DNA of 64,000 nucleotides, taken from positions 1,426,001 through 1,490,000 of the forward strand of contig OZ024745.1 in NCBI GenBank assembly GCA_964016885.1. Direction: 5' to 3'. This document shows positions 5,941 to 44,709 of this stretch, piece by piece. The DNA is from Eledone cirrhosa (taxonomy: Eukaryota). Numbering within the stretch: position 1 is the stretch's first letter; the number at the start of each line of letters is the position of its first letter. Made by a program: the position numbers and the translations under genes. The notes below the pieces were generated by a model. The model was not told the origin of the DNA. It ran no database searches and saw only the letters and a program-made list of their open reading frames with translations.

Positions 5941-5970
<30 letters not shown>

Positions 5971-6103
5971 GGAAAAAATGAAACGAAATTTCATTTCCCA
6001 CTCTTAGTACGGCCGTTACTTAAATATAAGTATGTACACGTACATACATATATGTATTTCCGTTTATCGTTTTCGGTGCACCCGGCCGATTAACCCACTC
6101 AAT

Positions 6104-6111
6104 ATGCAAAT
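6104..6111 (+). promoter_or_regulatory. Octamer motif ATGCAAAT upstream of hammerhead
   Basis: Exact octamer at an equivalent position in related elements (22479, 41413, 41881, 42349 on the minus strand); function inferred. Confidence 0.4.
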
Positions 6112-6178
6112 TGGGCTACTCAGCCGTTAATATGCATAAGGTAAGTATATAGGTTCAATAATCTGACAGGAAGGTATA

Positions 6179-6219
6179 CGTTGCTGACGATAGCTAATAA
6201 GCTTGAAACTAGTACAGCG
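6179..6219 (+). ncRNA. Minimal type I hammerhead ribozyme
   Basis: CGTTG-CTGACGA-tAGCT(aata)AGCTt-GAAAC-TA-GTA^CAGCG; palindromic stem III ACTAGT. Confidence 0.85.
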
Positions 6220-7512
6220 TTCCTTTGTCTGTTGAACAAACGAGCAACGATGGTTGCTGGACACTACGGCGTAATACGGGATGTTTGTTTACAAACACAC
6301 CGAGCATTATAATAAATGTTCGGTGAATCCATACGTACATATATATATGTGTGCATGTATGTATATATATATACATACTACTGTACGTCTGTATACATAT
6401 ATGTATGTACGTGTACATACTTATATATATATATATATACTATATATTTTATTAAGGCTAAACAGTGAGTGTTGTTACTGTGGAGTTTCGCCTACATATG
6501 ACAGTGTCATCAGAGAAGAATTAACATTTAATAGCAGAGACAGTACAAATAAGAGAGGGAGAGAGAGGGGGTAGTGGGAGGGGTGGGGAGTGTAGACAGA
6601 TCTATAGATAGATAGTGTAGATAGAGTGAGAGAGAGAGAGAGAGAGAGGGGGTAGTGGGAGGGGTGGGGAGTGTAGACAGATCTATAGATAGATAGTGTA
6701 GATAGAGTGAGAGAGATAGAGAGAGAGAGAGGGGGTAGTGGGAGGGGTGGGGAGTGTAGACAGATCTATAGATAGATAGTGTAGATAGAGTGAGAGAGAG
6801 AGAAGTGTAGATGTGTTTCTCCCTCTATTTCACTCACTTCCCCTCCCACTTTCTCTATACCATCTTTCTATCTGTCACATTCTCTCTTATATTTTATATC
6901 TTCTTTGTCTTTCCTCCCTCCCCCTCCTCCTCTTTGTTTATTCCCTCCTTTCACTTATTTTATACTCCCCCTCCTACTTCTGGAATCTGACCTTCACATC
7001 CTCTCACTGTTTCTCCTATTACCACACAGTCATTTCTCCCCCTCTCTCATTAATACTACCCCCATCTTTAACTCTCCTCCTCTCTCATTACTATTACCTA
7101 CCTCTCTCTAACTCACCCCTCTCTCATTTCTATTACCTACCTCTTTTTAACTCTTCCCCTCTCTCATTACTATTACCTACTTCTCTTTAACTCTCCCTCT
7201 CAACTGTATTACCTACCTCTCTTTAATTCTCCCCCTCTCTCAATAATATTATCTACTTCTCTCTAACTCTCCCCCTCTCTCAATAATATTACCTACCTCT
7301 CTCACATCTCGCCCCTCTCAATACTATTACCTACCTCCTCTCCCCCTCTCGCATTACTATTACCTACCTCTCTCTCCCCTCTCTCATTTATTACCTACCT
7401 CCTCTCCCCCTCTCTATATAAGTTGCTCTCTTCATGCCGCTCTAACATCAATGGAACCTGCTTTGTATTTTTTGTCTTTTCTGTTTTACCTTCCAGCTTG
7501 TGATTCGCCATA

Positions 7513-9790
7513 TTGGATGGTTGTGACAGTGGTATTGGTGGTGGTGGTGGTGGTGGTGGTGGTGGTGATGGTATTGGTGGTGGTGGTGGTGGTGGTGGTG
7601 GTGAGGGTAGTGGTGGTGGTGGTAGTGGTGCTAGTGGTGTTGGTGGTGGTGGTGGTAGTGGTGGTAGTGGTGTTGGTGGTGGTGGTGGTGAGGGTAGTGG
7701 TGGTGGTGGTAGTGGTGGTAGTGGTGGTGGTGGTGGTGGTGATGGTATTGGTGGTGGTGAGGGTGGTAATGGTGGTAGTGGTATTGGTGGTGGTGGTGGT
7801 GGTGAGGGTGGTGATGGTGGTGGTGGTGAGGGTGGTGGTGGTGAGGGTGGTGATGGTAGTGGTGGTGGTAGTGGTGGTAGTGGTGGTAGTGGTGTTGGTG
7901 TTGGTGGTGGTGGTGGTAGTGGGGGTAGTGGTGGTAGTGGTGGTGGTGGTGGTGAGGGTGGTATTGGTGGTGGTGGTGGTGAGGGTGGTATTGGTGGTAG
8001 TGGTGGTGGTGGTGAGGGTGGTGATGGTAGTGGTGGTAGTGGTGGTGGTGGTGGTGATGGTAGTGGTGGTAGTGGTGGTGGTAGTGGTATTGGTGGTGGT
8101 GGTGGTGAGGGTGGTGATGGTAGTGGTGGTAGTGGTGGTGGTGGTGAGGGTGGTGATGGTAGTGGTGGTGGTGGTGGTGGTGGTGAGGGTGGTGATGGTA
8201 GTGGTGGTAGTGGTGGTGGTGGTGGTGATGGTGAGGGTGGTGATGGTAGTGGTGGTAGTGGTGGTGGTGGTGGTAGTGGTGAGGGTGGTGATGGTAGTGG
8301 TGGTAGTGGTGGTGGTGGTGGTGATGGTAGTGGTGGTAGTGGTGGTGGTAGTGGTATTGGTGGTGGTGGTGGTGAGGGTGGTGATGGTAGTGGTGGTAGT
8401 GGTGGTGGTGGTGAGGGTGGTGATGGTAGTGGTGGTGGTGGTGGTGGTGGTGAGGGTGGTGATGGTAGTGGTGGTAGTGGTGGTGGTGTTGGTGGTGGTG
8501 AGGGTGGTGATGGTAGTGGTGGTAGTGGTGGTGGTGGTGGTGATGGTAGTGGTGGTAGTGGTGGTGGTAGTGGTATTGGTGGTGGTGGTGGTGAGGGTGG
8601 TGATGGTAGTGGTGGTAGTGGTGGTGGTGGTGAGGGTGGTGATGGTAGTGGTGGTGGTGGTGGTGGTGGTGAGGGTGGTGATGGTAGTGGTGGTAGTGGT
8701 GGTGGTAGTGGTGGTGGTGGTGGTGAGGGTGATGATGGTAGTGGTGGTAGTGGTGGTGGTGTTGTTGGTGGTGGTAGTGGTGGTAGTGGTGTTGGTGGTG
8801 ATGGTGGTGGTGAGGGTGGTGGTGGTAGTGGTGGTAGTGGTGGTGGTGTTGGTGGTGGTGGTGGTGGTGAGGGTGGTGGTGGTAGTGGTGGTAGTGGTGG
8901 TGTTGGTGGTGGTGGTTGTGGTGGTAGTGGTAGTGGTGGTAGTGGTAGTGGTAGTGGTGGTATTGGTTGTGGTGGTGGTAGTGGTGGTAGTGCTAGTGGT
9001 GGTGGTGGTGGTAGTGGTGGTGGTGGTATTGGTTGTGGTAGTGGTAGTATTGGTGGTGGTGGTGGTGGTGGTGGTGGTGGTGGTAGTAGTGGTGGTTATA
9101 GTAGTGGTGGTGGTGGTATTGGTGGTGGTGGTGGTGGTGGTATTGGTGGTAGTGGTGGTGGTGGCGGTGGTGGTAGTGGTGGTAGTGGTGGTGGTGGTAG
9201 TGGTGGTAGTGGTGGTAGTGGTACTGGTGGTGGTGGTTGTATTGGTTGTGGTGGTTATAGTAGTGGTGGTGGTGGTGGTAATGGTTGTGGTGGTGGCGGT
9301 GGTGGTATTGGTTGTGGTGGTGGTAGTAGTAGTGGTGGTAGTGGTAGTGGTGGTGGTGGTAGTGGTGGTGGTGGTTGTATTGGTTGTGGTGGTGGTAGTG
9401 GTGGTAGTGGTGGTGGTGGTGGTAGTGGTGGTGGTGGTGGTAGTGGTAGTGGTGGTGGTGGTGGTAGTGGTGGAGGTGGTATTGGTTGTGGTGGTGGTGG
9501 TGGTGGTAGTGGTGGTGATGGTAGTGGTGGTGGTAGTAGTGGTGGTGGTGGTGTTAGTGGTGGTGGTGGTAGTGGTTGTGGTGGTGGTAGTGGTTGTAGT
9601 GGTGGTAGTGTTGTTTGTGATGGTGGTAGTGGTGGTGGTAGTGGCGGTGTTGGATGGTTGTGACAGTAGAATTGGTGGTGGTGGTGTTAGTGGTTATAGT
9701 GGTGGTGTTAGTGGTGGTTAGAATGGTGGTTATAGTAGTGGTGGTGGTGGTATTGGTGGTGGTGGTGGTGGTGGTGTTAGTGATGGTGGA
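7513..9790 (+). repeat. Degenerate (GGT)n trinucleotide array
   Basis: ~2.2 kb of GGT with AGT/GAG/GAT/ATT/TGT variants and internal block duplications. Confidence 0.95.
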
Positions 9791-12919: not shown

Positions 12920-14245
12920 TAACAGCAGTATATGTTGTTATACATTTCAACAGTAGTATATACAGCAGTATATGTTGTTATACATTTCAACAGTAGTATA
13001 TACAGCAGTATATGTTGTTATACATTTCAACAGTAGTATATACAGCAGTATATGTTGTTATACATTTCAACAGTAGTATATACAGCAGTATATGTTGTTA
13101 TACATATCAACAGTAGTATATACAGCAGTATATGTTGTTATACATATCAACAGTAGTATATACAGCAGTATATGTTGTTATACATTTCAACAGTAGTATA
13201 TACAGCAGTATATGTTGTTATACATATCAACAGTAGTATATACAGCAGTATATGTTGTTATACATTTCAACAGTAGTATATACAGCAGTATATGTTGTTA
13301 TACATATCAACAGTAGTATATACAGAAGTATATGTTGTTATACATTTCAACAGTAGTATATACAGCAGTATATGTTGTTATACATATCAACAGTAGTATA
13401 TACAGCAGTATATGTTGTTATACATTTCAACAGTAGTATATACAGCAGTATATGTTGTTATACATTTCAACAGTAGTATATACAGCAGTATATGTTGTTA
13501 TACATTTCAACAGTAGTATATACAGCAGTATATGTTGTTATACATATCAACAGTAGTATATACAGCAGTATATACTGTTATACATTTCAACAGTAGTATA
13601 TACAGCAGTATATGTTGTTATACATATCAACAGTAGTATATACAGCAGTATATACTGTTATACATTTCAACAGTAGTATATACAGCAGTATATACTGTTA
13701 TACACATTTCAACAGTAGTATATACAGCAGTATATGTTGTTATACATTTCAACAGTAGTATATACAGCAGTATATACTGTTATACATTTCAACAGTAGTA
13801 AATACAGGAGTATATGTTGTTATACATTTCAACAGTAGTAAATACAGGAGTATATACTGTTATACACATTTCAACAGTAGTATATACAGCAGTATATGTT
13901 GTTATACACATTTCAACAGTAGTATATAGAGCAGTATATGTTGTTATACATATCAACAGTAGTATATACAGCAGTATATGCTGTTATACACATTTCAACA
14001 GTAGTATATACAGCAGTATATGTTGTTATACACATTTCAACAGTAGTATATACAGCAGTATATGTTGTTATACATATCAACAGTAGTAAATACAGGAGTA
14101 TATACTGTTATACACATTTCAACAGTAGTATATACAGCAGTATATACTGTTATATACATTTCAACAGTAGTATATACAGCAGTATATACTGTTATACACA
14201 TTTCAACAGTAGTATATACAGGAGTATATACTGTTATACACATTT
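12920..14245. repeat. 40-bp minisatellite (~32 copies)
   Basis: Unit AACAGTAGTATATACAGCAGTATATGTTGTTATACATTTC, with 42-bp variants at the right end. Confidence 0.95.
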
Positions 14246-14530: not shown

Positions 14531-17500
14531 GTGGTTATAATTGTATACTGTAGTTATAACTATAGAACTGTATAGTGTAGTTATAACTATAGAACTGTAT
14601 AGTGTAGTTATAACTATAGAACTGTATAGTGTAGTTATAACTATAGAACTGTAAACTGTAGTTATAACTATAGAACTGTATAGTGTAGTTATAACTATAG
14701 AACTGTATAGTGTAGTTATAACTATAGAACTGTATACTGTAGTTATAACTATAGAACTGTATAGTGTAGTTATAACTATAGAACTGTATAGTGTAGTTAT
14801 AACTATAGAACTGTATAGTGTAGTTATAACTATAGAACTGTATAGTGTAGTTATAACTATAAAACTGTATAGTGTAGTTATAACTATAGAACTGTATAGT
14901 GTAGTTATAACTATAGAACTGTATAATGTAGTTATAACTATAGAACTGTATAGTGTAGTTATAACTATAGAACTGTATAGTGTAGTTATAACTATAGAAC
15001 TGTATACTGTAGTTATAACTATAGAACTGTAAACTGTAGTTATAACTATTGAACTGTATACTGTAGTTATAACTATAGAACTGTATAGTGTAGTTATAAC
15101 TATAGAACTGTATAGTGTAGTTATAACTATAGAACTGTATAGTGTAGTTATAACTATAAAACTGTATAGTGTAGTTATAACTACAGAACTGTATAGTGTA
15201 GTTATAACTATAGAACTGTATAATGTAGTTATAACTATAGAACTGTATAGTGTAGTTATAACTATAGAACTGTATAGTGTAGTTATAACTATAGAACTGT
15301 ATAGTGTAGTTATAACTATAGAACTGTATAGTGTAGTTATAACTATAGAACTGTATAGTGTAGTTATAACTATAAAACTGTATAGTGTAGTTATAACTAT
15401 AGAACTGTATAGTGTAGTTATAACTATAGAACTATATAGTGTAGTTATAACTATAGAACTGTATAGTGTAGTTATAACTATAGAACTGTATAGTGTAGTT
15501 ATAACTATAGAACTGTATAGTGTAGTTATAACTATAGAACTGTATACTGTAGTTATAACTATAGAACTGTATAGTGTAGTTATAACTATAGAACTGTATA
15601 GTGTAGTTATAACTATAGAACTGTATAGTGTAGTTATAACTATAGAACTGTATACTGTAGTTATAACTATAGAACTGTATACTGTAGTTATAACTATAGA
15701 ACTGTATAGTGTAGTTATAACTATAGAACTGTATAGTGTAGTTATAACTATGGAACTGTATAGTGTAGTTATAACTATAGAACTGTATAGTGTAGTTATA
15801 ACTATAGAACTGTATACTGTAGTTATAACTATAGAACTGTATAGTGTAGTTATAAATATAGAACTGTATAGTGTAGTTATAACTATAGAACTGTATAGTG
15901 TAGTTATAACTATAGAACTGTATAGTGTAGTTATAACTATAGAACTGTATAGTGTAGTTATAACTATAGAACTGTATAGTGTAGTTATAACTATAGAACT
16001 GTATAGTGTAGTTATAACTATAGAACTGTAAACTGTAGTTATAACTATAGAACTGTATAGTGTAGTTATAACTATAGAACTGTATAGTGTAGTTATAACT
16101 ATAGAACTGTAAACTGTAGTTATAATTATAGAACTGTATAGTGTAGTTATAACTATAGAACTGTATAGTGTAGTTATAACTATTGAACTGTATAGTGTAG
16201 TTATAACTATAGAACTGTATAGTGTAGTTATAACTATAGAACTGTATAGTGTAGTTATAACTATAGAACTGTATAGTGTAGTTATAACTATAGAACTGTA
16301 TAATGTAGTTATAACTATAGAACTGTATAGTGTAGTTATAACTATAGAACTGTATAGTGTAGTTATAACTATAGAACTGTATAGTGTAGTTATAACTATA
16401 GAACTGTATAGTGTAGTTATAACTATAAAACTGTATAGTGTAGTTATAACTATAGAGCTGTATAGTGTAGTTATAACTATAGAACTGTATAGTGTAGTTA
16501 TAACTATAGAACTGTATAGTGTAGTTATAACTATAGAACTGTATAGTGTAGTTATAACTATAGAACTGTATAGTGTAGTTATAACTATAGAACTGTATAG
16601 TGTAGTTATAACTATAGAACTGTATAGTGTAGTTATAACTATAGAACTGTATAGTGTAGTTATAACTATAGAACTGTATAGTGTAGTTATAACTATAGAA
16701 CTGTATAGTGTAGTTATAACTATAGAACTGTATAGTGTAGTTATAACTATAGAACTGTATAGTGTAGTTATAACTATAGAACTGTATAGTGTAGTTATAA
16801 CTATAGAACTGTAAACTGTAGTTATAACTATAGAACTGTATAGTGTAGTTATAACTATAGAACTGTATAGTGTAGTTATAACTATAGAACTGTAAACTGT
16901 AGTTATAATTATAGAACTGTATAGTGTAGTTATAACTATAGAACTGTATAGTGTAGTTATAACTATTGAACTGTATAGTGTAGTTATAACTATAGAACTG
17001 TATAGTGTAGTTATAACTATAGAACTGTATAGTGTAGTTATAACTATAGAACTGTATAGTGTAGTTATAACTATAGAACTGTATAATGTAGTTATAACTA
17101 TAGAACTGTATAGTGTAGTTATAACTATAGAACTGTATAGTGTAGTTATAACTATAGAACTGTATAGTGTAGTTATAACTATAGAACTGTATAGTGTAGT
17201 TATAACTATAAAACTGTATAGTGTAGTTATAACTATAGAACTGTATAGTGTAGTTATAACTATAGAACTGTATAGTGTAGTTATAACTATAGAACTGTAT
17301 AGTGTAGTTATAACTATAGAACTGTATAGTGTAGTTATAACTATAGAACTGTATAGTGTAGTTATAACTATAGAACTGTATAGTGTAGTTATAACTATAG
17401 AACTGTATAGTGTAGTTATAACTATAGAACTGTATACTGTAGTTATAACTATAGAACTGTATAGTGTAGTTATAAATATAGAACTGTAAACTGTAGTTAT

Positions 17501-20500
17501 AACTATAGAACTGTATACTGTAGTTATAACTATTGAACTGTATAGTGTAGTTATAACTATAGAACTGTATAGTGTAGTCATAACTATAGAACTGTATAGT
17601 GTAGTTATAACTATAGAACTGTATAGTGTAGTTATAACTATAGAACTGTATAGTGTAGTTATAACTATAGAACTGTATACTGTAGTTATAACTATAGAAC
17701 TGTATAGTGTAGTTATAACTATAGAACTGTATAGTGTAGTTATAACTATAGAACTGTATAGTGTAGTTATAACTATAGAACTGTATACTGTAGTTATAAC
17801 TATAGAACTGTATACTGTAGTTATAACTATAGAACTGTATAGTGTAGTTATAACTATAGAACTGTATAGTGTAGTTATAAATATGGAACTGTATAGTGTA
17901 GTTATAACTATAGAACTGTATAGTGTAGTTATAACTATAGAACTGTATAGTGTAGTTATAACTATAGAACTGTATACTGTAGTTATAACTATAGAACTGT
18001 ATAGTGTAGTTATAACTATAGAACTGTAAACTGTAGTTATAACTATAGAACTGTATACTGTAGTTATAACTATAGAACTGTATAGTGTAGTTATAACTAT
18101 AGAACTGTATACTGTAGTTATAACTATAGAACTGTATAGTGTAGTTATAACTATAGAACTGTATAGTGTAGTTATAACTATAGAACTGTATAGTGTAGTT
18201 ATAACTATAGAACTGTATAGTGTAGTTATAACTATAGAACTGTATAGTATAGTTATAACTATAGAACTGTATAGTATAGTTATAACTATAGAACTGTATA
18301 GTGTAGTTATAACTATAGAACTGTATAGTGTAGTTATAACTATAGAACTGTATAGTGTAGTTATAAATATAGAACTGTATAGTGTAGTTATAACTATAGA
18401 ACTGTATAGTGTAGTTATAACTATAGAACTGTATAGTGTAGTTATAACTATAGAACTGTATAGTGTAGTTATAACTATAGAACTGTAAACTGTAGTTATA
18501 ACTATAGAACTGTATAGTGTAGTTATAACTATAGAACTGTATAGTGTAGTTATAACTATAGAACTGTAAACTGTAGTTATAATTATAGAACTGTATAGTG
18601 TAGTTATAACTATAGAACTGTATAGTGTAGTTATAACTATTGAACTGTATAGTGTAGTTATAACTATAGAACTGTATAGTGTAGTTATAACTATAGAACT
18701 GTAAACTGTAGTTATAATTATAGAACTGTATAGTGTAGTTATAACTATAGAACTGTATAGTGTAGTTATAACTATAGAACTGTATAGTGTAGTTATAACT
18801 ATAGAACTGTATAGTGTAGTTATAACTATAGAACTGTATAGTGTAGTTATATCTATAGAACTGTATAGTGTAGTTATAACTATAGAACTGTATAGTGTAG
18901 TTATAACTATAGAACTGTATACTGTAGTTATAACTATAGAATTGTATAGTGTAGTTATAACTATAGAACTGTATAGTGTAGTTATAACTATAGAACTTTA
19001 TAGTGTAGTTATAACTATAGAACTGTAAACTGTAGTTATAACTATTGAACTGTATAGTGTAGTTATAACTATAGAACTGTATAGTGTAGTTATAACTATA
19101 GAACTGTATAGTGTAGTTATAACTATAGAACTGTATAGTGTAGTTATAACTATAGAACTGTATAGTGTAGTTATAACTATAGAACTGTATAGTGTAGTTA
19201 TAACTATAGAACTGTATAGTGTAGTTATAACTATAGAACTGTATACTGTAGTTATAACTATTGAACTGTATAGTGAAGTTATAACTATAGAACTGTAAAC
19301 TGTAGTTATAACTATAGAACTGTATACTGTAGTTATAACTATTGAACTGTATAGTGTAGTTATAACTATAGAACTGTATAGTGTAGTTATAACTATAGAA
19401 CTGTATAGTGTAGTTATAACTATAGAACTGTATAGTATAGTTATAACTATAGAACTGTATAGTGTAGTTATAACTATAGAACTGTATAGTGTAGTTATAA
19501 CTATAGAACTGTATAGTGTAGTTATAACTATAGAACTGTATACTGTAGTTATAACTATAGAACTGTATAGTGTAGTTATAACTATAGAACTGTATAGTGT
19601 AGTTATAACTATAGAACTGTATAGTGTAGTTATAACTATAGAACTGTAAACTGTAGTTATAACTATAGAACTGTATAGTGTAGTTATAACTATAGAACTG
19701 CAAACTGTAGTTATAATTATAGAACTGTATAGTGTAGTTATAACTATAGAACTGTATAGTGTAGTTATAACTATAGAACTGTATAGTGTAGTTATAACTA
19801 TAGAACTGTATAGTGTAGTTATAACTATAGAACTGTATAGTGTAGTTATAACTATAGAACTGTATAGTGTAGTTATAACTATAGAACTGTATACTGTAGT
19901 TATAACTATAGAATTGTATAGTGTAGTTATAACTATAGAACTGTATAGTGTAGTTATAACTATAGAACTGTATTGTGTAGTTATAACTATAGAACTGTAA
20001 ACTGTAGTTATAACTATTGAACTGTATAGTGTAGTTATAACTATAGAACTGTATAGTGTAGTTATAACTATAGAACTGTATAGTGTAGTTATAACTATAG
20101 AACTGTATAGTGTAGTTATAACTATAGAACTGTATAGTGTAGTTATAACTATAGAACTGTATAGTGTAGTTATAACTATAGAACTGTATACTGTAGTTAT
20201 AACTATAGAACTGTATAGTGTAGTTATAAATATAGAACTGTATAGTGTAGTTATAACTATAGAACTGTAAACTGTAGTTATAACTATAGAACTGTATAGT
20301 GTAGTTATAACTATATAACTGTATAGTGTAGTTATAACTATAGAACTGTAAACTGTAGTTATAACTATAGAATTGTATAGTGTAGTTATAACTATAGAAT
20401 TGTATAGTGTAGTTATAACTATAGAACTGTATAGTGTAGTTATAACTATAGAACTGTATAGTGTAGTTATAACTATAGAACTGTATAGTGTAGTTATAAC

Positions 20501-20570
20501 TATAGAACTGTATAGTGTAGTTATAACTATAGAACTGTATAGTGTAGTTATAACTATAGAACTGTAAACT
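14531..20570. repeat. 27-bp satellite array (~220 copies)
   Basis: Unit TATAGTGTAGTTATAACTATAGAACTG containing the palindrome TAGTTATAACTA; explains the ITTLYSSIV and QFYSYNYTI pseudo-ORFs. Confidence 0.97.
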
Positions 20571-21865: not shown

Positions 21866-22096
21866 GGGGTCATCTCTCCCGGTGATTTTGGATGGCCATT
21901 GACTCTTAAGAGCTCCTTTGCCCTTTGACAGGTTTTGTTTTTAGTCCTGCAGGATGTCCAAAGTCACCCTTCTCACCAGAAACCTTGGTGAGGTTGCCAG
22001 TTTAGTCGCCAACGACCCGACCATGAGACAGGTTGTACTGGGATACATGTTACCAGTAGCACCAACTAGTGACCTGACATATACAACTGGTGACCT

Positions 22097-22133
<37 letters not shown>

Positions 22134-22348
22134 GTTAAAAATGTACATCTACATATGCATACTGAAATACTAGTATGCATATGAATACACACACGTATAC
22201 ATATGTAGATGTACCAAGTCTTTCACTGGTTACTTTACTGTGAGTATCCAGCTATTCTGTATGTAAACACACAGACAAACCGGTTTTTAGAGTCATACTG
22301 GTTTTTGAGGAAACACCTTTCCTCTATTCTCCAGAAAGCCAGACAAGG

Positions 22349-22393
22349 AATATTGAACTAGTTTCGTTGTTGTTACAACTCATCAGCAATATT
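22349..22393 (-). ncRNA. Minimal type I hammerhead ribozyme
   Basis: Reverse complement reads AATATTG-CTGATGA-GTTGT(aaca)ACAAC-GAAAC-TA-GTT^CAATATT. Confidence 0.9.
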
Positions 22394-22790
22394 TACCTAT
22401 CTACCGGCCTTTCTGGAGAATCGTAAAAGCACATATCGTTATATGCTTTTTCTATGAAAATTAGTAGTGGGCAGACTAATTTGCATAGAGTGTGAGTACG
22501 TACCGGTTCAACGGAGACGATAAAAACAAATAACGAAACGAAATTAAATTTCGTTTCGTTTGTAACTCACTTTTGTATGACTGACGCTTAAACAATTAAG
22601 TTAAAAATGTACATCTACATATGCATACTGAAATACTAGTATGCATATGAATACACACACGTATACATATGTAGATGTACCAAGTCTTTCACTGGTTACT
22701 TTACTGTGAGTATCCACTACTAATTTTCATAGAAAAAGCATATAACGATATGTGCTTTTACGATTCTCCAGAAAGGCCGGTAGATAGGTA

Positions 22791-22835
22791 AATATTGCTG
22801 ATGAGTTGTAACAACAACGAAACTAGTTCAATATT
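22791..22835 (+). ncRNA. Minimal type I hammerhead ribozyme
   Basis: AATATTG-CTGATGA-GTTGT(aaca)ACAAC-GAAAC-TA-GTT^CAATATT; 7-bp stem I and canonical core. Confidence 0.9.
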
Positions 22836-23123
22836 CCTTGTCTGGCTTTCTGGAGAATAGAGGAAAGGTGTTTCCTCAAAAACCAGTATGACTCTAAAAA
22901 CCGGTTTGTCTGTGTGTTTACATACAGAATAGCTGGATACTCACAGTAAAGTAACCAGTGAAAGACTTGGTACATCTACATATGTATACGTGTGTGTATT
23001 CATATGCATACTAGTATTTCAGTATGCATATGTAGATGTACATTTTTAACTTAATTGTTTAAGCGTCAGTCATACAAAAGTGATTTACAAACGAAACGAA
23101 ATTTAATTTCGTTTCGTTATTTG

Positions 23124-23191
<68 letters not shown>

Positions 23192-23346: not shown

Positions 23347-24200
23347 CTAACAGCGCTGCGATCGAATGTGGCTTTTTAGCCCAGTCAATGATCTAAAATG
23401 TCTTGCACAGAGTCGGCAACCAAAACATTCACTGGGAATAGTCGGCTGTGGTTGGAGTTCGTGTACTTTTGCATGTCGCTTGAGCCCTCCTGCTGATTTA
23501 CATTCTCTACCACATGTTTGGCAAGCATGATGAGTAGCATCACCAACAGCAGCCTGGTAGTCAACCACTGGTCTTACTTTATGACTGCGAAGATGACTTT
23601 CGAGTCCAGCTTTGCTTAGGCAGAGTCTCGCACAGACGCTGCATGTCAGCACCATAGGAGGACCCTCGCCGTCTGGAAGTGCAACAGCAATGCCCTTCCT
23701 CACATCCCGCTTTACTTTCTCGTATGCGATTCGAGATGCCTCAAAGGCAACTTTTCCCTCATATACAGTCTTTCTCCATTTATTACGAGCAGCAGTAATA
23801 TTTTTCCATGTATCAGCAGAGATGTTAGCGTCTTTCAAAGAGGCTTTCAAGGAATCCTTATACCTCTTTTTTAGTTTATGTGGAGGTCGTTTTCCTTTAA
23901 CTAACTCTCCATAAAAGAGTTGTTTTGGTATTCTAGAATCCTTCATCCTGGCAAGGTGACCACTCCAACGGAGTCGTTGCTTAAGCACAAGAGCTTCTAT
24001 ACTGTCACACATAGAGCTTTCCAAAGTCTCGACATCACTGATGTGGTCCCTCCAGTGAACGCCATGGATCCGTCTGAGACACATCTGATGGAAACACTCC
24101 AATTGCTTAAGGTGGTGTCGATATGTGACCCAGGTCTCGCAGGCATAAAGAAGACAAGAGAGCACACATGCCTTGTACACCTTTACCTTTGTCTTCTTGC
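23347..24200 (-). mobile_element. 5'-truncated RTE-clade LINE (post-RT domain + three C2H2 zinc fingers)
   Basis: TKVKVYKACVLSCLLYACETW..RLRWSGHLARMKDSRIPKQLFYGEL, followed by CSVC..HLRSH, CQTC..HAKVH, CRLC..HIRS. Confidence 0.9.
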
Positions 24201-24278
24201 ATACATACATACATACATACATACATACATACATACATACATACATACATACATACATACACATATATATACATATAT

Positions 24279-25499
24279 CATGGCTGCAAACTCGTGTTCG
24301 AGTATTGCCATCGCCCGATAAAATGCTCAAAAATGTGAGACACGAATGTGGCTCTTTAAACCAGTCAAATGCTTGCACCCTCTGGCACATATATGGCAAC
24401 TGATGGCTTCTCTGGGACTTTCCATTGCTTTGTTCTGACTGTGTTTCTTATGTGTCTTTTAAGATCTCCCATGCTAGCACACTCCTTGCCACATTCCTTA
24501 CACCTTTTCAGATCATAATCTACATGAGGTCTACTGATATGACTTTGTTCATGTCTAATCAGGCAGTTCAGAACAGTCTCCTTTCCTCAACTTCCTTTTC
24601 ACTGTTTGGTGTTCCCTTCGACGAGTTTCAAGGTGTTCACTTCCTGACTTGATCAAACGTCTCCACTTCACTCCTCCTCAGCCATTTTCTCCCATTCGTC
24701 AGATGAAATTCCAGCACAAACGAAGGTGCCTCTGACACAGTCCCGGTACCGCATTTTTGGTTTGTGTGGTGGTCGCCTTCCTTCACACAGTTCTCCGTAG
24801 AGAAATTGCTTTGGAATACGATCATCAGACATCCAGACCACGTGTCCACACCACCTCAACCGATACCGAAAGATTATGCTCTCTATAGTCACGCACCTGC
24901 TCCGTTCGAGAACTTCCAAATCACTGACGAACATTTTCCATCGCACCCCAAGTAACTTACGAAGAAATTGTTGGCGAAATCTCTCCAGTTCCTTGAGATG
25001 CTTTCTGTCTGTGACCCACGTTTCACAAACATAAAGCAAAGAGGAGACGACACAAGTCAGATACACTTTCACCTTGGTTTCAATGGTGATACCTTGTCTG
25101 GACCATAAACGTTGATGCAGCCGTCCAAAAGCATCACTGGCTTTCTTGATTCTTAAGGGTACTTCATTATCATGTGTGCATGAAGTGTTCAACGTACTAC
25201 CAAGGTAAAGAAACTTGTCAGCAACGTTTAGCCTCTTTCCGTACACGTACACACTTGGTGCAGTGTACTCGTTTCCAGGTGTTGGCTGATAGATCACAAC
25301 AGTCTTTTCCAAGCTTATTGTGAGGCCCAAAGTGCTGCAAGCTTCAGAAAAAGAGTTCATAATAATCTGCATGTCACTTTGTGAGTGTGCAAAAAGATCG
25401 CAGTCGTCTGCATACAAACATTCTCGGATTATAGATGTTAATACCTTCGTGCTTGCACCAAATGCCTGATGTTAAACAACCTTCCCGAAAGGCGATACC

Positions 25500-25505
<6 letters not shown>
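24279..25505 (-). mobile_element. 5'-truncated RTE-clade LINE (RT motif C onward)
   Basis: [60 protein letters not shown]; 3' end followed by (TATG)n. Confidence 0.9.
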
Positions 25506-25550
<45 letters not shown>

Positions 25551-25580
25551 ACCTTCCCGAAAGGCGATACCTGATGTATA

Positions 25581-25626
<46 letters not shown>

Positions 25627-25662
25627 CATATATATACATCAGGTATCGCCTTTCGGGAAGGT

Positions 25663-25702
<40 letters not shown>

Positions 25703-26415: not shown

Positions 26416-26923
26416 CAAGGGTCGGCTGAAAAGTTCATATGCTGACCAAGATACTCTCATGGAATGACTAGATGAGGTTTATTTTTTCAACATAGTATCT
26501 GGAAAGAAACAATGTAGATATTAATAAGAAGAGTTGAAATGAATGCATGCAAGATTTCACAGCTCTAGCATCACTCCATAGGCTGAAAAGTTCATATGCT
26601 GACCAAGATACTCTCATGGAATGACTAGATGAGGTTTATTTTTTCAACATAGTATCTGGAAAGAAACAATGTAGATATTAATAAGAAGAGTTGAAATGAA
26701 TGCATGCAAGATTTCACAGCTCTAGCATCACTCCATAGGCTGAAAAGTTCATATGCTGACCAAGATACTCTCATGGAACGATCAAATTAGATTTAGTTTT
26801 CAACATAGTCCCTGGTAAGAAACAATGCAGTTATTAAGAAGAGCTTAAATTAATGCATCAAGATTACACAGCACTAGCATCACTCTTTCATAGTCAGTCT
26901 ATGAACTTTTCAGCCTATACTCG
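26416..26923. mobile_element. Tc1/mariner-like MITE with internal ~157-bp triplication
   Basis: TA|CAAGGGTCGGCTGAAAAGTTCATA ... TATGAACTTTTCAGCCTATACTCG|TA imperfect TIRs with TA flanks. Confidence 0.75.
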
Positions 26924-28126: not shown

Positions 28127-28187
28127 GTGAAAAATGAAACGGGAACAAAACAGAGGCAGTACGAACAAAGGTTTATTAGTTTCACGC

Positions 28188-28252
<65 letters not shown>

Positions 28253-32500: not shown

Positions 32501-32590
<90 letters not shown>

Positions 32591-32794
32591 GTATTAGTGA
32601 TACTATTTATGGTTATGTAAACACAAGACCTTAAGCAGTTGTAAGTATTTTACACACACCCTAAATAGTGGTAGGCAGTATTGTATTACTACCTTATTAC
32701 CAGTAAGTTAAGTAGCTCAATGTAAAAACATCAGATGATTTACAGAGCAGTTATATGAAATATAAGAATCAAAGAACTGTTCAAAACATTATTG

Positions 32795-32841
32795 TGCTTA
32801 CAGCTGTTTCCTCCAAACCGAGGTTTGGATTCTTCGGAGCA
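32795..32841 (-). ncRNA. pLTR hammerhead ribozyme (inverted copy)
   Basis: Reverse complement of 35822-35868. Confidence 0.8.
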
Positions 32842-34286
32842 ATTTATTAATGCATGGACAGTTATATGACCTCCCTTTCAGCCGAGAGACATACCAATAC
32901 ATATTCAAACATTGATACATATTCAAACATTGTGGGTCAACATTCATTACAGAATTTAGAGTGGCAGTACACACTTCGAGATTACATTTATATTAATAGG
33001 TACAATCAAAAATCAAAAATATAGGTTAAAATACAACATGAAGATATGCGGTTATATAGTGCAAATGTTATAAGTGTGGCACGCATGTGCGTCTTGTTTA
33101 TATAGTGTGGCAGAGAGATATGTGTGGTAGAGGCACTTAGGTAGGTAAATAAGAGTGTTAGGTGGTAGATCTGGTGGCAAATTCTTTATATGATTGATAT
33201 AGTCTGTGTGTGGAGAAATATTATAAGCATTAAAGATAGTGCAAGCATTAAAAGTGTTATAAGTAATGGAGATGCACAGCGCAGGGATGTCAAGTATTTC
33301 ATGTACTTCGGCATTTTCATGGTCAGGGGAGTGTATTTTTCGATTATATGCCCTTCACGTAATCCACGACAATCCAGTTAGAGATCGTAGTCTGGTGTTC
33401 TTTAGTTCGATACAGGAGGTTGTTACGTTTCTAGAAACGCCATTGAATACCGCCCGGAAGTGTGTGTGTGTGGCAAAGGGGAGTTAATGCGTGCGGGGAG
33501 GTAACTCTGGGGTTTCTATATCTAGCCATTAAAATGTGTCCCAATATAGACCCTAAATTCTATGGTGATGTGCACCTTCCAAGAGAGATTTTTAAAGCAT
33601 AAAGTGTATTAACTATAGAGTAGTTTAATTAAGTTATGCTGAAGGTGGTCATATTATTATGGTGGATTAACCCATCTTAAGGTGCCATAAATGGAAATTA
33701 TAGATGATGAGCGAGGATTCTAAATTAATGATCTCTGTGGTTGTAGTCTGCTCATATGACCAGGCGCGGTGATTGCAGGCTTGCTTCAGGACCCAATGAT
33801 CTCTGGTAAGATCTGGGTCATCGCTTGCTACATTTGATGTCGAAAGAAAATCATCCCCAGGCCGGCCAAAGGTCAATCCGCAGTCCTCGCGACCCCTCTC
33901 TGACCGTCAGATCATCCATATACGTACAACCCGCCCGGCAGTTGCAATGCATTCACTCACTGCGCTCAGCAGTCCGGTCCTACTGGTCAACAGCGCTACT
34001 CGATTAAATCATTTTACATCCGTCTAAGGAAGGTGTTTCCTCTGCACAACACTATCCGACCGATCAATTCATGCTCAAATTACCCTTAGAGCGGTGTAGT
34101 GCCGTTCAAGTGGGTGGATGTTGTCACGCCTGCCGTAGAGGTATAAATGGGTATTCTCCCTGCGAAGGGTTCCAGAGGGATGTCGTTGTTTGTGTTATAA
34201 TGGATCAGTTAGTGTTGGGTATGTAGTATAAGGTGTGTCTCTGGTGTTTGATGCTAGATGTGGTGTTAGGTTCCAGTCCGACCTTG

Positions 34287-35646
34287 CTATATATTGGGCT
34301 TAAAGTTTTGGAAGGAATGTCTGAGGCGGTGCTGGCAAGTTGCAAACACCTCAGATTTTTTGTTAAGTAGGTTACGGTTGGAGAAGATAATATTGTGTGT
34401 CTCTAGGTTACAGAATTTATTAGGTGGTTTGTACGAGGTCGCGCTGCCTATCACTTCCCATTTGAGTGTGTATGGTTTATTTTTAGATTTTAGATAGTGT
34501 ATGTAGCTAGAAAGTGAGGTGGAGTTGGCTAGGCTGTGCTTTTTGAACGAGTGGATGTGCGAATTATATCTGATTTTGAAGCAGTTAGAAGTGGAGCCTA
34601 CATAGGTTTCTGAAGAGTTATTAGTCGTGACGGTGCATGAGTATATGACATCCTTGGTTAGGCATTTTTTATCTAAAGGGCAGGTTCTATTAGCTCTACA
34701 GTTACAATTATCCTGTGCGTTAGTCCGCTGGTTATAATGCAATGCGGAAGTCTGTGTGGTAGATATAGGATTTTGGGTGTTCGGGTTGACAACCCTGGTG
34801 TTATTACTTATACTAGTGTTATTTCTATTGTTACTGCCGTTGCTATGGTTGCTGGCTACAGTGGTATTTAGAGGGTTTGCATCCCGTTGTGATTTTGTTT
34901 GTTGGAAGTAAGAACTAATTTTACTATTATTGCTGCTAGCTATGTGGTATGCTAAGTTAGGCGTTGTAGAGTATGAGATTTTAATGGTGTTTTTGTTTGA
35001 GAGGTTGTGGTACTTGTGTCCTAGAGGGAAGTTTTTATCTAGTAGTGAGAAGAAAGCCCTAGGTATGTTGGTGGAGACATTAAGGTTGAAAGGAGGGTTG
35101 AAAAATGTATTATTTCTTCTTCTATTTTTGCTTTTAGTGTTTGGTGTGTTGCTTCCTCCTAAGGCCCCACAGTAGTTTCCATGGTAATGGTTACTTCTGG
35201 TGGCACCCAACGCTTTGGTGTACTTGTGGTTGCTATTCCTATTATTAGATTTCCTCATGGACATGTTGTGCGAGATGATGTTGTAGCTATGTGTTTTCTT
35301 AGGTAGGAACTCAATTTCTATATTATGGCCGGAGCTAGCTAATGCTTGATTGTAATATTGTGAGTTTTTGCTAAATATGTTTGCGTCATAGGACAGACTA
35401 GAGATTCTATTGGACACCCCCTTAGAGATAGAGTTTAATATTGATCTAGGGTGATTAGACTTGGTATCTACGTAAATAAGTTTCTCATTAGGCTTATGGA
35501 AAGGTGTATATATTTTTGAGTCTAGGTATAGTGTGGCGTCTAGGAAGTTAACATTTTTAGTGTTTTTGTCCATGGTGATACTAAGGTTAAAGTTTTTGAA
35601 TGTCTTATGCAGTTGTTTTCTAGTTCTTTCTATATTAAATTTTTAT
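34287..35646 (-). pseudogene. Inverted 3' part of the Penelope ORF (end of RT, linker, GIY-YIG)
   Basis: Near-identical to ~37205-38565; begins just after the YRDD motif; three visible amino-acid differences. Confidence 0.93.
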
Positions 35647-35679
35647 AATATTAATATCTATATTAATTTTTATAATATT

Positions 35680-36074
35680 AATCTCGAAGTGTGTACTGCC
35701 ACTCTAAATTCTGTAATGAATGTTGACCCACAATGTTTGAATATGTATCAATGTTTGAATATGTATTGGTATGTCTCTCGGCTGAAAGGGAGGTCATATA
35801 ACTGTCCATGCATTAATAAATTGCTCCGAAGAATCCAAACCTCGGTTTGGAGGAAACAGCTGTAAGCACAATAATGTTTTGAACAGTTCTTTGATTCTTA
35901 TATTTCATATAACTGCTCTGTAAATCATCTGATGTTTTTACATTGAGCTACTTAACTTACTGGTAATAAGGTAGTAATACAATACTGCCTACCACTATTT
36001 AGGGTGTGTGTAAAATACTTACAACTGCTTAAGGTCTTGTGTTTACATAACCATAAATAGTATCACTAATACTA
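35680..36074 (+). repeat. 5' pseudo-LTR of the Penelope-like element
   Basis: Direct repeat of 39850-40082 and inverted repeat of 32589-32983. Confidence 0.9.
35822..35868 (+). ncRNA. pLTR minimal hammerhead (variant core CCGAAGA)
   Basis: TGCT-CCGAAGA-aTCCAAAC(ctcg)GTTTGGAg-GAAAC-AGCT-GTA^AGCA; palindromic stem III ACAGCTGT typical of Penelope HHRs. Confidence 0.8.
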
Positions 36075-36114
36075 TTAACTGCTCCATATCGTTGAGCTGA
36101 CATATATTGCCAAT

Positions 36115-38565
36115 ATGCTAATCAAAGACCAACTCCCCATGTCAACCAAGAACATACCAATACCATCCAGGAATACATATGAGAAATTGCTGATCAACAG
36201 TGTAAATTCATTTATCAATAGAGTGAGATGGAGGACATTCCATTATGATAGAAATAAATCTAACAACTTGAATAATACTAACAATTTTGACTCCTTCGGC
36301 TTTAAAACCTTTAAAAGCCCCCCTCATAACACTCTTCTTAACTCCTTTGAAAATGACCTAGTTAAACTAGTTAAGAACATTAAATACAATAAGCACCATA
36401 TTAAAAGCAACACCTTCTTAAACAAACTTAACACTTCTATTAATGGATTCAAAACTAGTAATAAAATTATTGTACACGCAGATAAAACTAATAACATATA
36501 CAGCCTAGATTATAATACTTATAGAAAGTTTATATATAATGAACTACATAAAAGCTACAAAAAAACCACCTTGAAAAACTTAGAAGATATTAATGTAGAG
36601 GGTTATAATATAGTGTCTAAACTAGGACTACAGAGGCATACACAACCTTTCACTCCGAACCCCCCTAGATTCTCTCTGAAGGACCATAAGGAGAACTTCA
36701 TCAGCAACCCCACGATAAGACTTATCTGCCCTTCCAAGTCCGACATTGGTATTATCAGCAAGAAGATTTTGGATAAAATCATCCCACAAATTAAACACAA
36801 GATACACCTTAAACAATGGGGAAATACGGGTGAAGTCATTGAATGGTTCAAGGATATCAAGAATAATAAGAACAAAAAATTTATTCAATTTGATATCAAT
36901 TCGTACTACACCTCTATTTCCCCTATCCTATTAAATAAGGCACTTATCATGGCCATGACCAATAGCGACCTGACTAGAGCCCAGGTTGATGTCATCCTTG
37001 CGGCCCGTAAAACCATAATTACCTTTGAGGACCAACTATGGACACGCAAGGATACGCACAACAACTTCGACATAACCATGGGATCTAGTGACTCGGCGCA
37101 GGTCACTGATTTGGTCGGTCTATACCTCCTCAATGAAATCCATAAGGACCTCCCTTACCTCAACGGTGGTTTGTACCGCGATGATGCACTTCTACTTATA
37201 GAATATAAAAAATTTAATATAGAAAGAACTAGAAAACAACTGCATAAGACATTCAAAAACTTTAACCTTAGTATCACCATGGACAAAAACACTAAAAATG
37301 TTAACTTCCTAGACGCCACACTATACCTAGACTCAAAAATATATACACCTTTCCATAAGCCTAATGAGAAACTTATTTACGTAGATACCAAGTCTAATCA
37401 CCCTAGATCAATATTAAACTCTATCTCTAAGGGGGTGTCCAATAGAATCTCTAGTCTGTCCTATGACGCAAACATATTTAGCAAAAACTCACAATATTAC
37501 AATCAAGCATTAGCTAGCTCCGGCCATAATATAGAAATTGTGTTCCTACCTAAGAAAACACATAGCTACAACATCATCTCGCACAACATGTCCATGAGGA
37601 AATCTAATAATAGGAATAGCAACCACAAGTACACCAAAGCGTTGGGTGCCACCAGAAGTAACCATTACCATGGAAGCTACTGTGGGGCCTTAGGAGGAAG
37701 CAACACACCAAACACTAAAAGCAAAAATAGAAGAAGAAATAATACATTTTTCAACCCTCCTTTCAACCTTAATGTCTCCACCAACATACCTAGGGCTTTC
37801 TTCTCACTACTAGATAAAAACTTCCCTCTAGGACACAAGTACCACAACCTCTTAAACAAAAACACCATTAAAATCTCATACTCTACGACGCCTAACTTAG
37901 CATACCACATAGCTAGCAGCAATAATAGTAAAATTAGTTCTTACTTCCAACAAACAAAATCACAAAGGGATGCAAACCCTCTAAATACCACTGTAGCCAG
38001 CAACCATAGCAACGGCAGTAACAATAGAAATAACACTAGTATAAGTAATAACACCAGGGTTGTCAACCCGAACACCCAAAATCCTATATCTACCACACAG
38101 ACTTCCGCATTGCATTATAACCAGCGGACTAACGCACAGGATAATTGTAACTGTAGAGCTAATAGAACCTGCCCTTTAGATAAAAAATGCCTAACCAAGG
38201 ATGTCATATACTCATGCACCGTCACGACTAATAACTCTTCAGAAACCTATGTAGGCTCCACTTCTAACTGCTTCAAAATCAGATATAATTCGCACATCCA
38301 CTCGTTCAAAAAGCACAGCCTAGCCAACTCCACCTCACTTTCTAGCTACATACACTATCTAAAATCTAAAAATAAACCATACACACTCAAATGGGAAGTG
38401 ATAGGCAGCGCGACCTCGTACAAACCACCTAATAAATTCTGTAACCTAGAGACACACAATATTATCTTCTCCAACCGTAACCTACTTAACAAAAAATCTG
38501 AGGTGTTTGCAACTTGCCAGCACCGCCTCAGACATTCCTTCCAAAACTTTAAGCCCAATATATAG
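36115..38565 (+). CDS. Penelope-like retroelement polyprotein: reverse transcriptase + C-terminal GIY-YIG endonuclease (Naiad-like), 816 aa
   Basis: Uninterrupted ORF with STKNIPIPS, ADKTNNIY, FIQFDINSYYTSI, MGSSDSAQVTDLVG, GGLYRDDALL, VNFLDATL, CNCR..CPLDKKCL, DVIY..TYVGST..FKIRYNSH, LLNKKSE..CQH. Confidence 0.95.
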   Translation: MLIKDQLPMSTKNIPIPSRNTYEKLLINSVNSFINRVRWRTFHYDRNKSNNLNNTNNFDSFGFKTFKSPPHNTLLNSFENDLVKLVKNIKYNKHHIKSNTFLNKLNTSINGFKTSNKIIVHADKTNNIYSLDYNTYRKFIYNELHKSYKKTTLKNLEDINVEGYNIVSKLGLQRHTQPFTPNPPRFSLKDHKENFISNPTIRLICPSKSDIGIISKKILDKIIPQIKHKIHLKQWGNTGEVIEWFKDIKNNKNKKFIQFDINSYYTSISPILLNKALIMAMTNSDLTRAQVDVILAARKTIITFEDQLWTRKDTHNNFDITMGSSDSAQVTDLVGLYLLNEIHKDLPYLNGGLYRDDALLLIEYKKFNIERTRKQLHKTFKNFNLSITMDKNTKNVNFLDATLYLDSKIYTPFHKPNEKLIYVDTKSNHPRSILNSISKGVSNRISSLSYDANIFSKNSQYYNQALASSGHNIEIVFLPKKTHSYNIISHNMSMRKSNNRNSNHKYTKALGATRSNHYHGSYCGALGGSNTPNTKSKNRRRNNTFFNPPFNLNVSTNIPRAFFSLLDKNFPLGHKYHNLLNKNTIKISYSTTPNLAYHIASSNNSKISSYFQQTKSQRDANPLNTTVASNHSNGSNNRNNTSISNNTRVVNPNTQNPISTTQTSALHYNQRTNAQDNCNCRANRTCPLDKKCLTKDVIYSCTVTTNNSSETYVGSTSNCFKIRYNSHIHSFKKHSLANSTSLSSYIHYLKSKNKPYTLKWEVIGSATSYKPPNKFCNLETHNIIFSNRNLLNKKSEVFATCQHRLRHSFQNFKPNI

Positions 38566-39849: not shown

Positions 39850-40255
<406 letters not shown>

Positions 40256-40305: not shown

Positions 40306-40309
40306 TATA

Positions 40310-40791: not shown

Positions 40792-40967
40792 ATAGGAAAA
40801 AGTATGACCCCGACGGCAGAGCTCAAGCCGTTTCGACGGAAATAGCCGTCGAAACGGCTTGAGCTCTGTCGTCGGGGTCGTACTTTTTCCTATTTCCCAC
40901 TCTACTACCCTAAGTATTGAGTACTCTGGTGCGTTATGGTCCATCTGGTTCCTTACCACAATTCCTT

Positions 40968-40972
<5 letters not shown>
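40792..40972. mobile_element. Fold-back element centred on a hammerhead stem II
   Basis: Palindrome 40792-40893; the right arm reads CCGTC-GAAAC-GGC(ttgagctct)GTC-GTC^GGGGTC; same family as 45136-45560. Confidence 0.7.

Positions 40973-41056
<84 letters not shown>

Positions 41057-44654: not shown

Positions 44655-44709
<55 letters not shown>

Follow-up and report, generated by a model that had tools for sequence, protein, structure and literature searches.

Retrozymes of animals are reported to be expressed as circular RNAs and have been proposed to be passengers of Penelope elements (PMC7229834; PMC7761336; PMC11722881). Their units are given as 150-450 bp in one study (PMC7229834) and as 51-972 bp in a 2026 preprint (bioRxiv 10.64898/2026.07.22.740005), which also ties retrozymes to pseudo-LTRs by homology and co-occurrence. 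The enzyme that moves them and the source of its RNA have been argued from such co-occurrence, from shared ribozymes, and from kinship to pseudo-LTRs (PMC7229834; PMC7761336; bioRxiv 10.64898/2026.07.22.740005). One of these studies describes the repeats as having no motif that points to a mobilizing element (PMC7761336).

Penelope elements are described as having a typical structure, comprising a partial tandem, an adjacent inverted 5'-truncated copy, and a tail of 30-40 bp at one end (PMC8557442; PMC3846280; PMC8969392). The origin of these tandem, inverted, and tailed insertions is presented as still debated (PMC8557442; PMC11167929). In vitro, a purified Penelope protein was reported to cut and extend both strands of the target, with the tail delimited by two internal positions of the RNA at which reverse transcription started (PMC11167929). 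According to the same source, ribozyme cleavage is dispensable, uncleaved RNA is the main substrate, and the start sites have no homology to the target, which argues against the need for a circle or for pairing with TA. Chlamydomonas is known to have non-autonomous passengers of Penelope that carry pseudo-LTRs (PMC8557442).

Here, we describe an insertion, E1, found in a 64-kb stretch of Eledone cirrhosa DNA (64,000 nucleotides, analyzed as a whole and called the window in the following). We consider it probable that E1 is a young insertion of a non-coding 466-bp hammerhead repeat, for which a Penelope-like reverse transcriptase-endonuclease acted in trans on a TA run. This enzyme likely nicked both strands and began synthesis at two fixed internal sites of an RNA uncut across the unit junction and the ribozyme site, most likely a re-closed circle.

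Structure of the insertion

E1 covers positions 22128-23130 and consists of a left and a right arm placed between two (TA)n runs, at 22100-22128 and 23128-23181, which we take as the target. We defined the unit as 22128-22593 (466 bp, GC 35%) and numbered it along the minus strand, which is the sense strand carrying the ribozyme, from u1 (22593) to u466 (22128). No frame of 100 codons overlaps it. In this numbering, end A is u466 and end B is u74. The left arm has 589 bp, i.e., 1.26 units (u344-466 and then u1-466), where the full unit is preceded by a 5'-truncated upstream partial unit of 123 bp (u344-466; 22594-22716, minus strand) that is the equivalent of a pseudo-LTR. This makes an exact direct repeat with a period of 466 (22128-22250 and 22594-22716, 123/123), the only direct repeat of E1. 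The right arm (22714-23130) is inverted and 5'-truncated, and reads without interruption from u124-466 (22714-23056, plus strand) into u1-74. In other words, it is the reverse complement of 22470->22128 (343/343) followed by that of 22593->22520 (74 bp). These last 74 bp form a tail (23057-23130, plus strand) that stops at site B (TTTAT|CGT), and the match extends to 23130 because the final TAT is common to the TA run. The first 74 nt of the full unit (22520-22593, minus strand), which reappear as this tail, include a 13-bp hairpin and the invariant block TTTATCGT around end B. The two arms meet at 22714-22716, in a 3-bp microhomology (CCA) common to both.

The right arm has one mismatch to the unit in 417 positions (23084, in the tail, vs 22566), and the arms are 99.8% identical. 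The repeats of 343, 197, and 123 bp have 99-100% identity and are far beyond chance (E 1e-179, 1e-98, and 4e-60). An earlier note made from the letters of this DNA had described a left arm of ~1.26 monomers with a period of 466, an inverted right arm reading across the monomer junction, and arms that both end in (TA)n. We recovered all of this, except that the partner of the right arm begins at 22470 and not at 22469. The RNA of the unit is predicted to fold strongly (-161.6 kcal/mol, z -10.6), and its predicted minimum energy as a circle is -156.9, compared with -93.6+-5.6 for 40 shuffles. A target-site duplication is unreadable within the TA runs, and outside them there is only a low-complexity 9-mer. 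A 21-bp tandem duplication (22063-22104) lies immediately to the left of the left TA run.

Related insertions and their ends

The window contains three other insertions related to E1. E2 (41049-42794, minus strand) is a tandem array of a 468-bp unit in 3.7 copies, with four hammerheads in a row; it is 5'-truncated and ends at A in (TA)n. E3 (5965-6426) is an inverted pair whose plus arm ends at A and whose minus arm runs beyond A for another 59 bp, a tail that stops at B. E4 (40308-40775) is also an inverted pair with its plus arm ending at A, and has a 14-bp tail on the minus arm and an overlap of 4 bp at the junction. An adjacent inverted 5'-truncated copy is thus found in three of the four related insertions, and the inversion point is different in each. 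The array of E2, with four tandem hammerheads in near-identical units, is the best candidate for a source of circles within the window. In a four-way alignment, E2-E4 are 57-61% identical to E1, and E1 aligned locally with E2 scores 330, compared with 168+-10 for shuffles. Since E3 and E4 are 94% identical, the four insertions are not fully independent. The units of E2 are identical save for one 2-nt TA indel, whereas the families are 57-94% identical. This uniformity within the array, set against the distance between families, would fit a bottleneck of one monomer.

The 3' ends of these insertions are not scattered. Among the seven arm 3' ends, four lie at A, two at B, and one elsewhere (the 14-nt tail of E4). 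End A lies three bases after CTTA in each of four arms, while for end B the alignment puts E1 and E3 in one and the same column, inside the invariant TTTATCGT, which gives tails of 74 and 59 nt. Having at least six of seven ends within two 7-nt windows has a chance of ~1e-5 under uniform placement, a statistic that comes from four related insertions in a single window. The arms have seven different 5' starts, between u64 and u434, which do not cluster significantly (P 0.12) when tested as a transcription start or a pause of the reverse transcriptase. The 3' ends of the retrozyme families are fixed and conserved, and their 5' ends are variable. The earlier note had called the right arm circularly permuted. 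If this means random entry points, it is not supported: six of the seven 3' ends are at two homologous sites, and the read-through corresponds to the tail described for a Penelope between two start sites of reverse transcription (PMC11167929). The same note had proposed that fixed termini or terminal inverted repeats would indicate a MITE. As a test this is ill-posed: fixed ends do exist here, yet with an offset of 74 bp and without forming terminal inverted repeats, the pattern that a Penelope produces. The fixed ends argue for reverse transcription by a Penelope rather than for a MITE.

All seven arm 3' ends adjoin TA runs. The end sequences read CTTAATT and TTTTAT, and 1-5 nt of the element are common to the flanking run. 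The mean overlap is 3.1 nt at seven independent sites, against a background of 0.6-1.4 (P 0.016), in a post hoc test whose background is that of the units themselves and for which the overlaps of E3 at B and F3b at A (3 nt each; for the F3 family, see below) were read separately. Only a weak hairpin surrounds site A (z 0.18, -1.57, and -0.30), and the minimum-energy fold of E4 lacks it.

Hammerhead motif and candidate promoter element

Each arm of E1 carries one type I hammerhead motif pointing outward. It lies at 22333-22404 in the left arm (minus strand; core 22386-22356, predicted cut after 22356, i.e., at u238/239) and at 22780-22851 in the right arm (plus strand; core 22798-22828, predicted cut after 22828). 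Both are matched by the Rfam model HH9 with 38.6 bits (E 1.2e-6 over 25 kb, 1.3e-8 locally), a score that falls below the gathering score of 52, and a scan of the whole 64-kb window at gathering level gave no match. The microRNA matches seen at the level of Rfam E-values were rejected as microsatellite noise. Every nucleotide of the core agrees with the model (CUGAUGA...GAAA, and C...GU of helix III), and pairing is seen in both helix I and helix II. Helix III consists of one pair with a palindromic CUAG cap, and the cut triplet is GUU, compared with GUA in the sister insertions. GUU is a slower cleavage site for hammerheads than GUA. The canonical, outward-pointing hammerheads announced by the earlier note are thus outward, of type I, and intact in their core; the word canonical fits less well a minimal helix III and a GUU site.

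The hammerhead region folds with a z of -5.8. Across the four related motifs of the window, two-sided changes occur at 6 of the 17 hammerhead pairs (0 of 500 shuffles, at most one in slid controls), a count that rests on four related sequences, such that the shuffle result is not a probability. The retrozyme type that the earlier note had assigned to the repeat is supported. The CUAG cap is predicted to be unfavorable within one molecule and able to pair between two (-8.0 kcal/mol). In this, helix III of E1 agrees with the description of the axolotl HHR_Amex1, in which one pair has a palindromic tetraloop as its cap and which is reported to cleave well only as a dimer (PMC7229834). A pattern scan of the 64 kb identified 11 hammerhead loci: 2 in E1, 6 in the sister family, and 3 in a Penelope element. 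Model R1, a hammerhead model built from the families of the window, recovered only their 8 copies and two weak matches (E 0.16 and 0.43) in a satellite.

The longest blocks that are invariant between E1, E2, and E3 are TATGCAAATT (the longest), the ribozyme core, and TTTATCGT around B. There is also a conserved hairpin (22451-22489, minus strand), whose 5' strand holds ATGCAAAT (22486-22479), presumably an octamer-type motif. The octamer forms part of snRNA-type promoters. Five of the eight matches to ATGCAAAT in the window are in E1, E2, and E3 (22479-22486, 6104-6111, 41413, 41881, and 42349). The motif is kept in every retrozyme unit that covers its site, and the partner strand of the hairpin varies. 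Another hammerhead repeat, satellite 2 of the newt, reportedly has an snRNA-type promoter (PMC2220036). By analogy, ATGCAAAT may be a promoter element of the retrozyme units.

Neighboring Penelope and other elements of the window

The window also carries a Penelope insertion (32588-40082) with a frame of 828 codons (36079-38565, plus strand), inserted in a (TA)n target. The frame has reverse transcriptase motifs and RWR, DKT, CNCRANRTC (CxCX5C), VIY..YVG (GIY-YIG), and CQH (CxH); the corresponding signature of the Hydra clade comprises RWK, DKT, CxCX5C, a C-terminal GIY-YIG, and CxH (PMC8557442). The endonuclease CxxC that precedes the conserved E is present in all 30 top homologues and absent here, and we therefore call the element Hydra-clade-like, an assignment made by motifs and not by a tree. 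Searches of the frame in Pfam and PDB gave no match to a reverse transcriptase or to GIY-YIG, and its homologues have no informative names. In the whole 7.5-kb structure, the period is 4171, the right copy amounts to 1.058 units, and the inverted arm, 5'-truncated, covers 3057 bp with a 164-bp tail. Its geometry is that of E1 in mirror image, and the resemblance between the two that the earlier note had pointed out is confirmed. Over 2894 bp, 11 substitutions and 3 gaps separate the arms of this Penelope, both of which are without three residues of the endonuclease CxxC motif. Its inversion junction holds a 27-bp duplicated filler, and there is a short duplication at the right end.

In each pseudo-LTR of this Penelope (35826, 39997, and 32837), the pattern scan located a hammerhead-like motif with the core CCGAAGA, which matches neither the Rfam hammerheads nor model R1. 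Comparison of the 466- and 468-bp units with the Penelope termini revealed no homology (scores of 186 and 175, for shuffles at 177+-8 and 178+-10). A junction comparison with this Penelope, the one in the window, gave a weak score (3 of 300 shuffles, among 22 comparisons). The sequence CTTATATTT, near end A and common to E3 and the Penelope, was discarded as not significant (115 of 300 shuffles). We therefore treat the Penelope of the window as context rather than as the established partner of the 466-bp unit.

A third family, F3, is unrelated to the retrozyme and forms inverted pairs flanked by TA at 40792-40975, 45135-45331, and 45455-45561, with one-sided tails of 82, 80, and 80 nt. Its copies have fixed ends and are heavily 5'-truncated, the ribozyme is absent from the part seen, and all three have the same tailed, inverted structure. 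Their tails have no similarity to those of the retrozyme. Overall, one-sided tails are found in three unrelated families of the window, with arm identities from 89% to 99.8%.

Several other elements of the window lie in or near TA runs. The segment 44704-45004 is a near-perfect palindrome between TA runs, with 165-bp arms (96%) and, as in the F3 elements, a near-palindromic center. Across 22 comparisons, both its ends resemble end B of the retrozyme, with 1 of 300 shuffles for E2 and 8 of 300 for E3, and it may be an insertion tailed on each side. The 66 bp at 28127-28192, between TA runs, weakly resemble the tail hairpin of the retrozyme (1-2 of 300 shuffles in two comparisons). In contrast to E1, the 104-bp element at 45016-45119, also between TA runs, starts with CAGGGTGT and has terminal inverted repeats of 34 bp (85%); it resembles a MITE of the Tc1/mariner type. 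To the right of E1, at 23347-25471 (minus strand), there are two LINE-like 3' fragments that are presumably RTE-like, one with a match to RVT_1 (E 8.5e-7) and the other then with C2H2 zinc-finger matches. Beside them lies a palindrome of a 72-bp unit with internal TA runs (25473-25668). Satellites are found at 46136-64000 (37 bp, 483 copies), 14542-20566 (27 bp, 223 copies), 12922-14240 (40 bp, 33 copies), 7529-9789 (TGG-type), 26424-26885 (157 bp, 3 copies), and 42795-43631 (27 bp, 31 copies), the last directly adjoining the 5' end of the E2 array.

Comparison with described elements

E1 resembles the metazoan non-LTR retrozymes in its non-coding unit spanning some hundreds of base pairs with a GC content below 50%, its type I hammerhead with an intact core and helices I and II, and its strongly self-paired RNA. 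The window resembles them in having tandem arrays, in the sister family, and Penelope elements in the same genome. With 466 bp, the unit is slightly above one of the published size ranges (150-450 bp; PMC7229834) and within the other (51-972 bp, in the 2026 preprint). Metazoan retrozymes are described as tandems, dimers, and monomers, whereas E1 is an inverted pair with a tail. It has one ribozyme per strand rather than two in tandem, and no tandem of the 466-bp family itself was seen in the 64-kb window, where the array of the sister family has four ribozymes. Unlike the repeats described in PMC7761336, E1 has ends, a tail, and an inversion that point to a mobilizing element.

E1 shares with the EN+ Penelope-like elements (Pen2a_Av, PMC3846280; PMC8557442, Fig. 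2) the features of a non-autonomous Penelope, namely a pseudo-LTR with partial tandem and 5' truncation, an inverted 5'-truncated copy, a tail at one end, and a microsatellite target, here (TA)n. It differs from them, as described in these sources, in having no ORF, a whole unit of 466 bp, a tail of 74 nt instead of 30-40, and a ribozyme that is not part of the duplicated 123 bp but sits in the middle of the unit, 228 nt from end A. The tails of the window measure 59-82 nt, and 164 in the Penelope, and are all longer than the published 30-40, with the exception of the 14 nt of E4. The Poseidon element PAc of Anolis (PMC11167929) is similar to E1 in its two fixed ends that bound the tail, its AT-rich target, and the events on both strands. 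The start sites of PAc are reported to lie in one AC-rich stem-loop without homology to the target, whereas those of E1 are 74 nt apart, U-rich, and overlap the TA run by 1-5 nt.

The Hydra-clade Penelopes (PMC8557442) recall the window by their (TA)n targeting and their hammerheads, and RWR, DKT, CxCX5C, and CxH are present in the window element, which is, however, without sequence link to the 466-bp unit. The Chlamys elements, such as MRC1 (PMC8557442), are, like E1, non-coding passengers of Penelope in which pseudo-LTRs and copies arranged head to tail occur. They are described as green algal, mostly without canonical hammerheads, and with a 3' end like that of their autonomous partners, a likeness that E1 does not have. 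A MITE would have mirror-image terminal inverted repeats and a fixed structure, whereas the ends here are offset by 74 bp, the junctions vary, and one insertion is a tandem array. The repeat has no match in prokaryotic genomes (searched with one pattern), plasmids, or phages. We read E1 most readily as a non-autonomous passenger of Penelope, of the retrozyme type and of a kind already known. Inverted or tailed retrozyme insertions are absent from the main texts of PMC7229834, where the words inverted and tail do not appear, and of the 2026 preprint, where neither is used with this meaning, and from the titles and abstract openings covered. This absence is weak evidence of novelty.

Template and proposed mechanism of insertion

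A cleaved linear monomer would yield at most 228 nt when copied from A, or 302 nt from B, and the arms of E1 have 589 and 417. Both arms cross the ribozyme cut site (u238/239) and the unit junction, so the template was uncut or re-closed there, which excludes a cleaved linear monomer. The DNA does not distinguish between a circle, an uncut multimer, and a strand jump on a redundant linear RNA. We regard it as likely that E1 was mobilized by a Penelope. If so, the chances that the template was a circle are about even, an uncut multimer is a sizeable possibility, and a redundant linear RNA with a strand jump is unlikely. We lean toward the circle because the ribozyme is kept by compensatory change, circles are abundant in three animals, and the units of E2 are near-identical. 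From the outset, E1 had been attributed to copying of a circular or multimeric RNA by the Penelope machinery. The Penelope-type insertion and a template longer than, or closed across, the cleaved monomer are upheld; circle and multimer are inseparable, and the neighboring Penelope has no homology to the unit.

The insertion could have taken place as follows. A tandem master located elsewhere would be transcribed, and its hammerheads, probably dimeric through the ACUAGU palindrome, would free a unit-length RNA that a host ligase would close. In the published Penelope reaction, from which we infer the enzyme acting on E1, the protein nicks AT-rich DNA on both strands. Priming from one nick would then occur at A and, from the second nick, at B, which lies 74 nt downstream, and at either end it would be helped by pairing with TA over the 1-5 nt of microhomology observed; this order of priming, like the joining that follows, is our proposal. 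The lengths are observed: the copy from A has 1.26 units, that from B 0.89 unit, and both go past the cut site. The unfinished cDNAs would anneal via the CCA seen at the junction and be repaired into a head-to-head pair with a one-sided tail. Twin priming applied to Penelopes was not found in the literature by title or abstract opening. The product is predicted to be unable to excise its own monomer, and its read-through RNA would be a 342-bp hairpin hiding the ribozymes. With one ribozyme per strand, the E1 locus is probably a dead end as a source of circles, and any 466-nt circle would have to derive from a tandem copy elsewhere.

The closest rival keeps the same Penelope machinery and dispenses with the circle: the RNA copied would be a multimer left linear and uncleaved, or else one with terminal redundancy on which a strand jump took place, and the ribozyme would be a passenger. 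We give this reading serious weight, if somewhat below an even chance. In the published reaction, the RNA used was predominantly uncleaved and mutation of the ribozyme left insertion normal (PMC11167929), and eight of nine Xenopus dimers are reported to remain uncleaved in vitro (bioRxiv 10.64898/2026.07.22.740005); at E1, helix III is weak and the site is GUU, and a tandem array is present in the sister family (E2). Against these stand the compensatory changes that maintain the ribozyme between families ~60% identical, the abundance of retrozyme circles reported in coral, mussel, and axolotl (PMC7229834), and the near-identity of the E2 units when the families are far apart. A different origin of the inversion is self-priming by fold-back, possibly on an antisense template, instead of two target-primed cDNAs. 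Such an origin has been put forward for Penelope inversions of the head-to-head type whose junctions hold palindromes (PMC3846280), and the near-palindromic centers of the short F3 elements and of the element at 44704-45004 would suit it. The junction of E1, in contrast, joins the distant u344 and u124 through 3 bp without a local palindrome, and both outer ends are at start sites of the sense strand in TA runs, which makes self-priming improbable here.

Explanations without a Penelope fare worse. Long inverted repeats and TA flanks are what a MITE or fold-back DNA transposon targeting TA would show, and the window does hold an element bounded by terminal inverted repeats between TA runs (45016-45119, 34-bp arms). 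Yet the ends of E1, offset by 74 bp, are not mirror images, the inversion point varies by sister, a plain tandem array sharing end A is found among these sisters, and a conserved ribozyme is meaningful only in RNA. Within the window, this reading is largely refuted and we hold it to be very improbable. We rate as low the idea that a tandem insertion was later rearranged by template switching during replication, or that the structure is a fold-back artefact of the assembly, even though the arms are 99.8% identical and inverted repeats are prone to mis-assembly: the read-through stops at a homologous base also used by a 61%-identical sister, and the one-sided tail recurs in three unrelated families whose arm identities range widely (89% to 99.8%). 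The least credible candidate is a Helitron-type rolling-circle DNA element making tandem arrays and hairpins. Helitrons form tandem arrays, have terminal hairpins and AT targets, and end in CTRR; the first three traits have their counterparts here. The ends, however, read CTTAATT and TTTTAT instead of CTRR, and the 5' ends vary. Moreover, we know of no Helitrons with head-to-head inversions carrying a tail, or with a conserved hammerhead, as seen in E1.

A much broader scheme than the Penelope-type insertion of E1 can be drawn from these data, which we find doubtful. Animal retrozymes would be circular minimal substrates of TA-targeting Penelope enzymes, a dimer of which would prime from both target nicks at two fixed sites of the circle, and this single reaction would account for the partial tandem, the inverted copy, and the one-sided tail in all Penelopes. 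The 466-nt RNA would then hold a complete cis code (a junction hairpin at A, a tail hairpin, UUUAU|CGU at B, and pairing with TA) in addition to an octamer-type promoter.

Implications

The components described here are all known. Their combination gives structural support for mobilization by Penelope, and the evidence comes from one window. If E1 was pasted by a Penelope, it gives direct structural support to the partnership between retrozymes and Penelopes, beyond co-occurrence and sequence kinship. A passenger of 466 nt that carries the whole structure, with start sites conserved between families ~60% identical, would make both the mobilization of retrozymes and the origin of Penelope insertions testable on a short RNA. 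Such a substrate would allow comparing circle and multimer, A and B, and the presence or absence of TA pairing. Counts of ends and tails also offer an inexpensive means of linking retrozyme families of any genome to Penelope mobilization.
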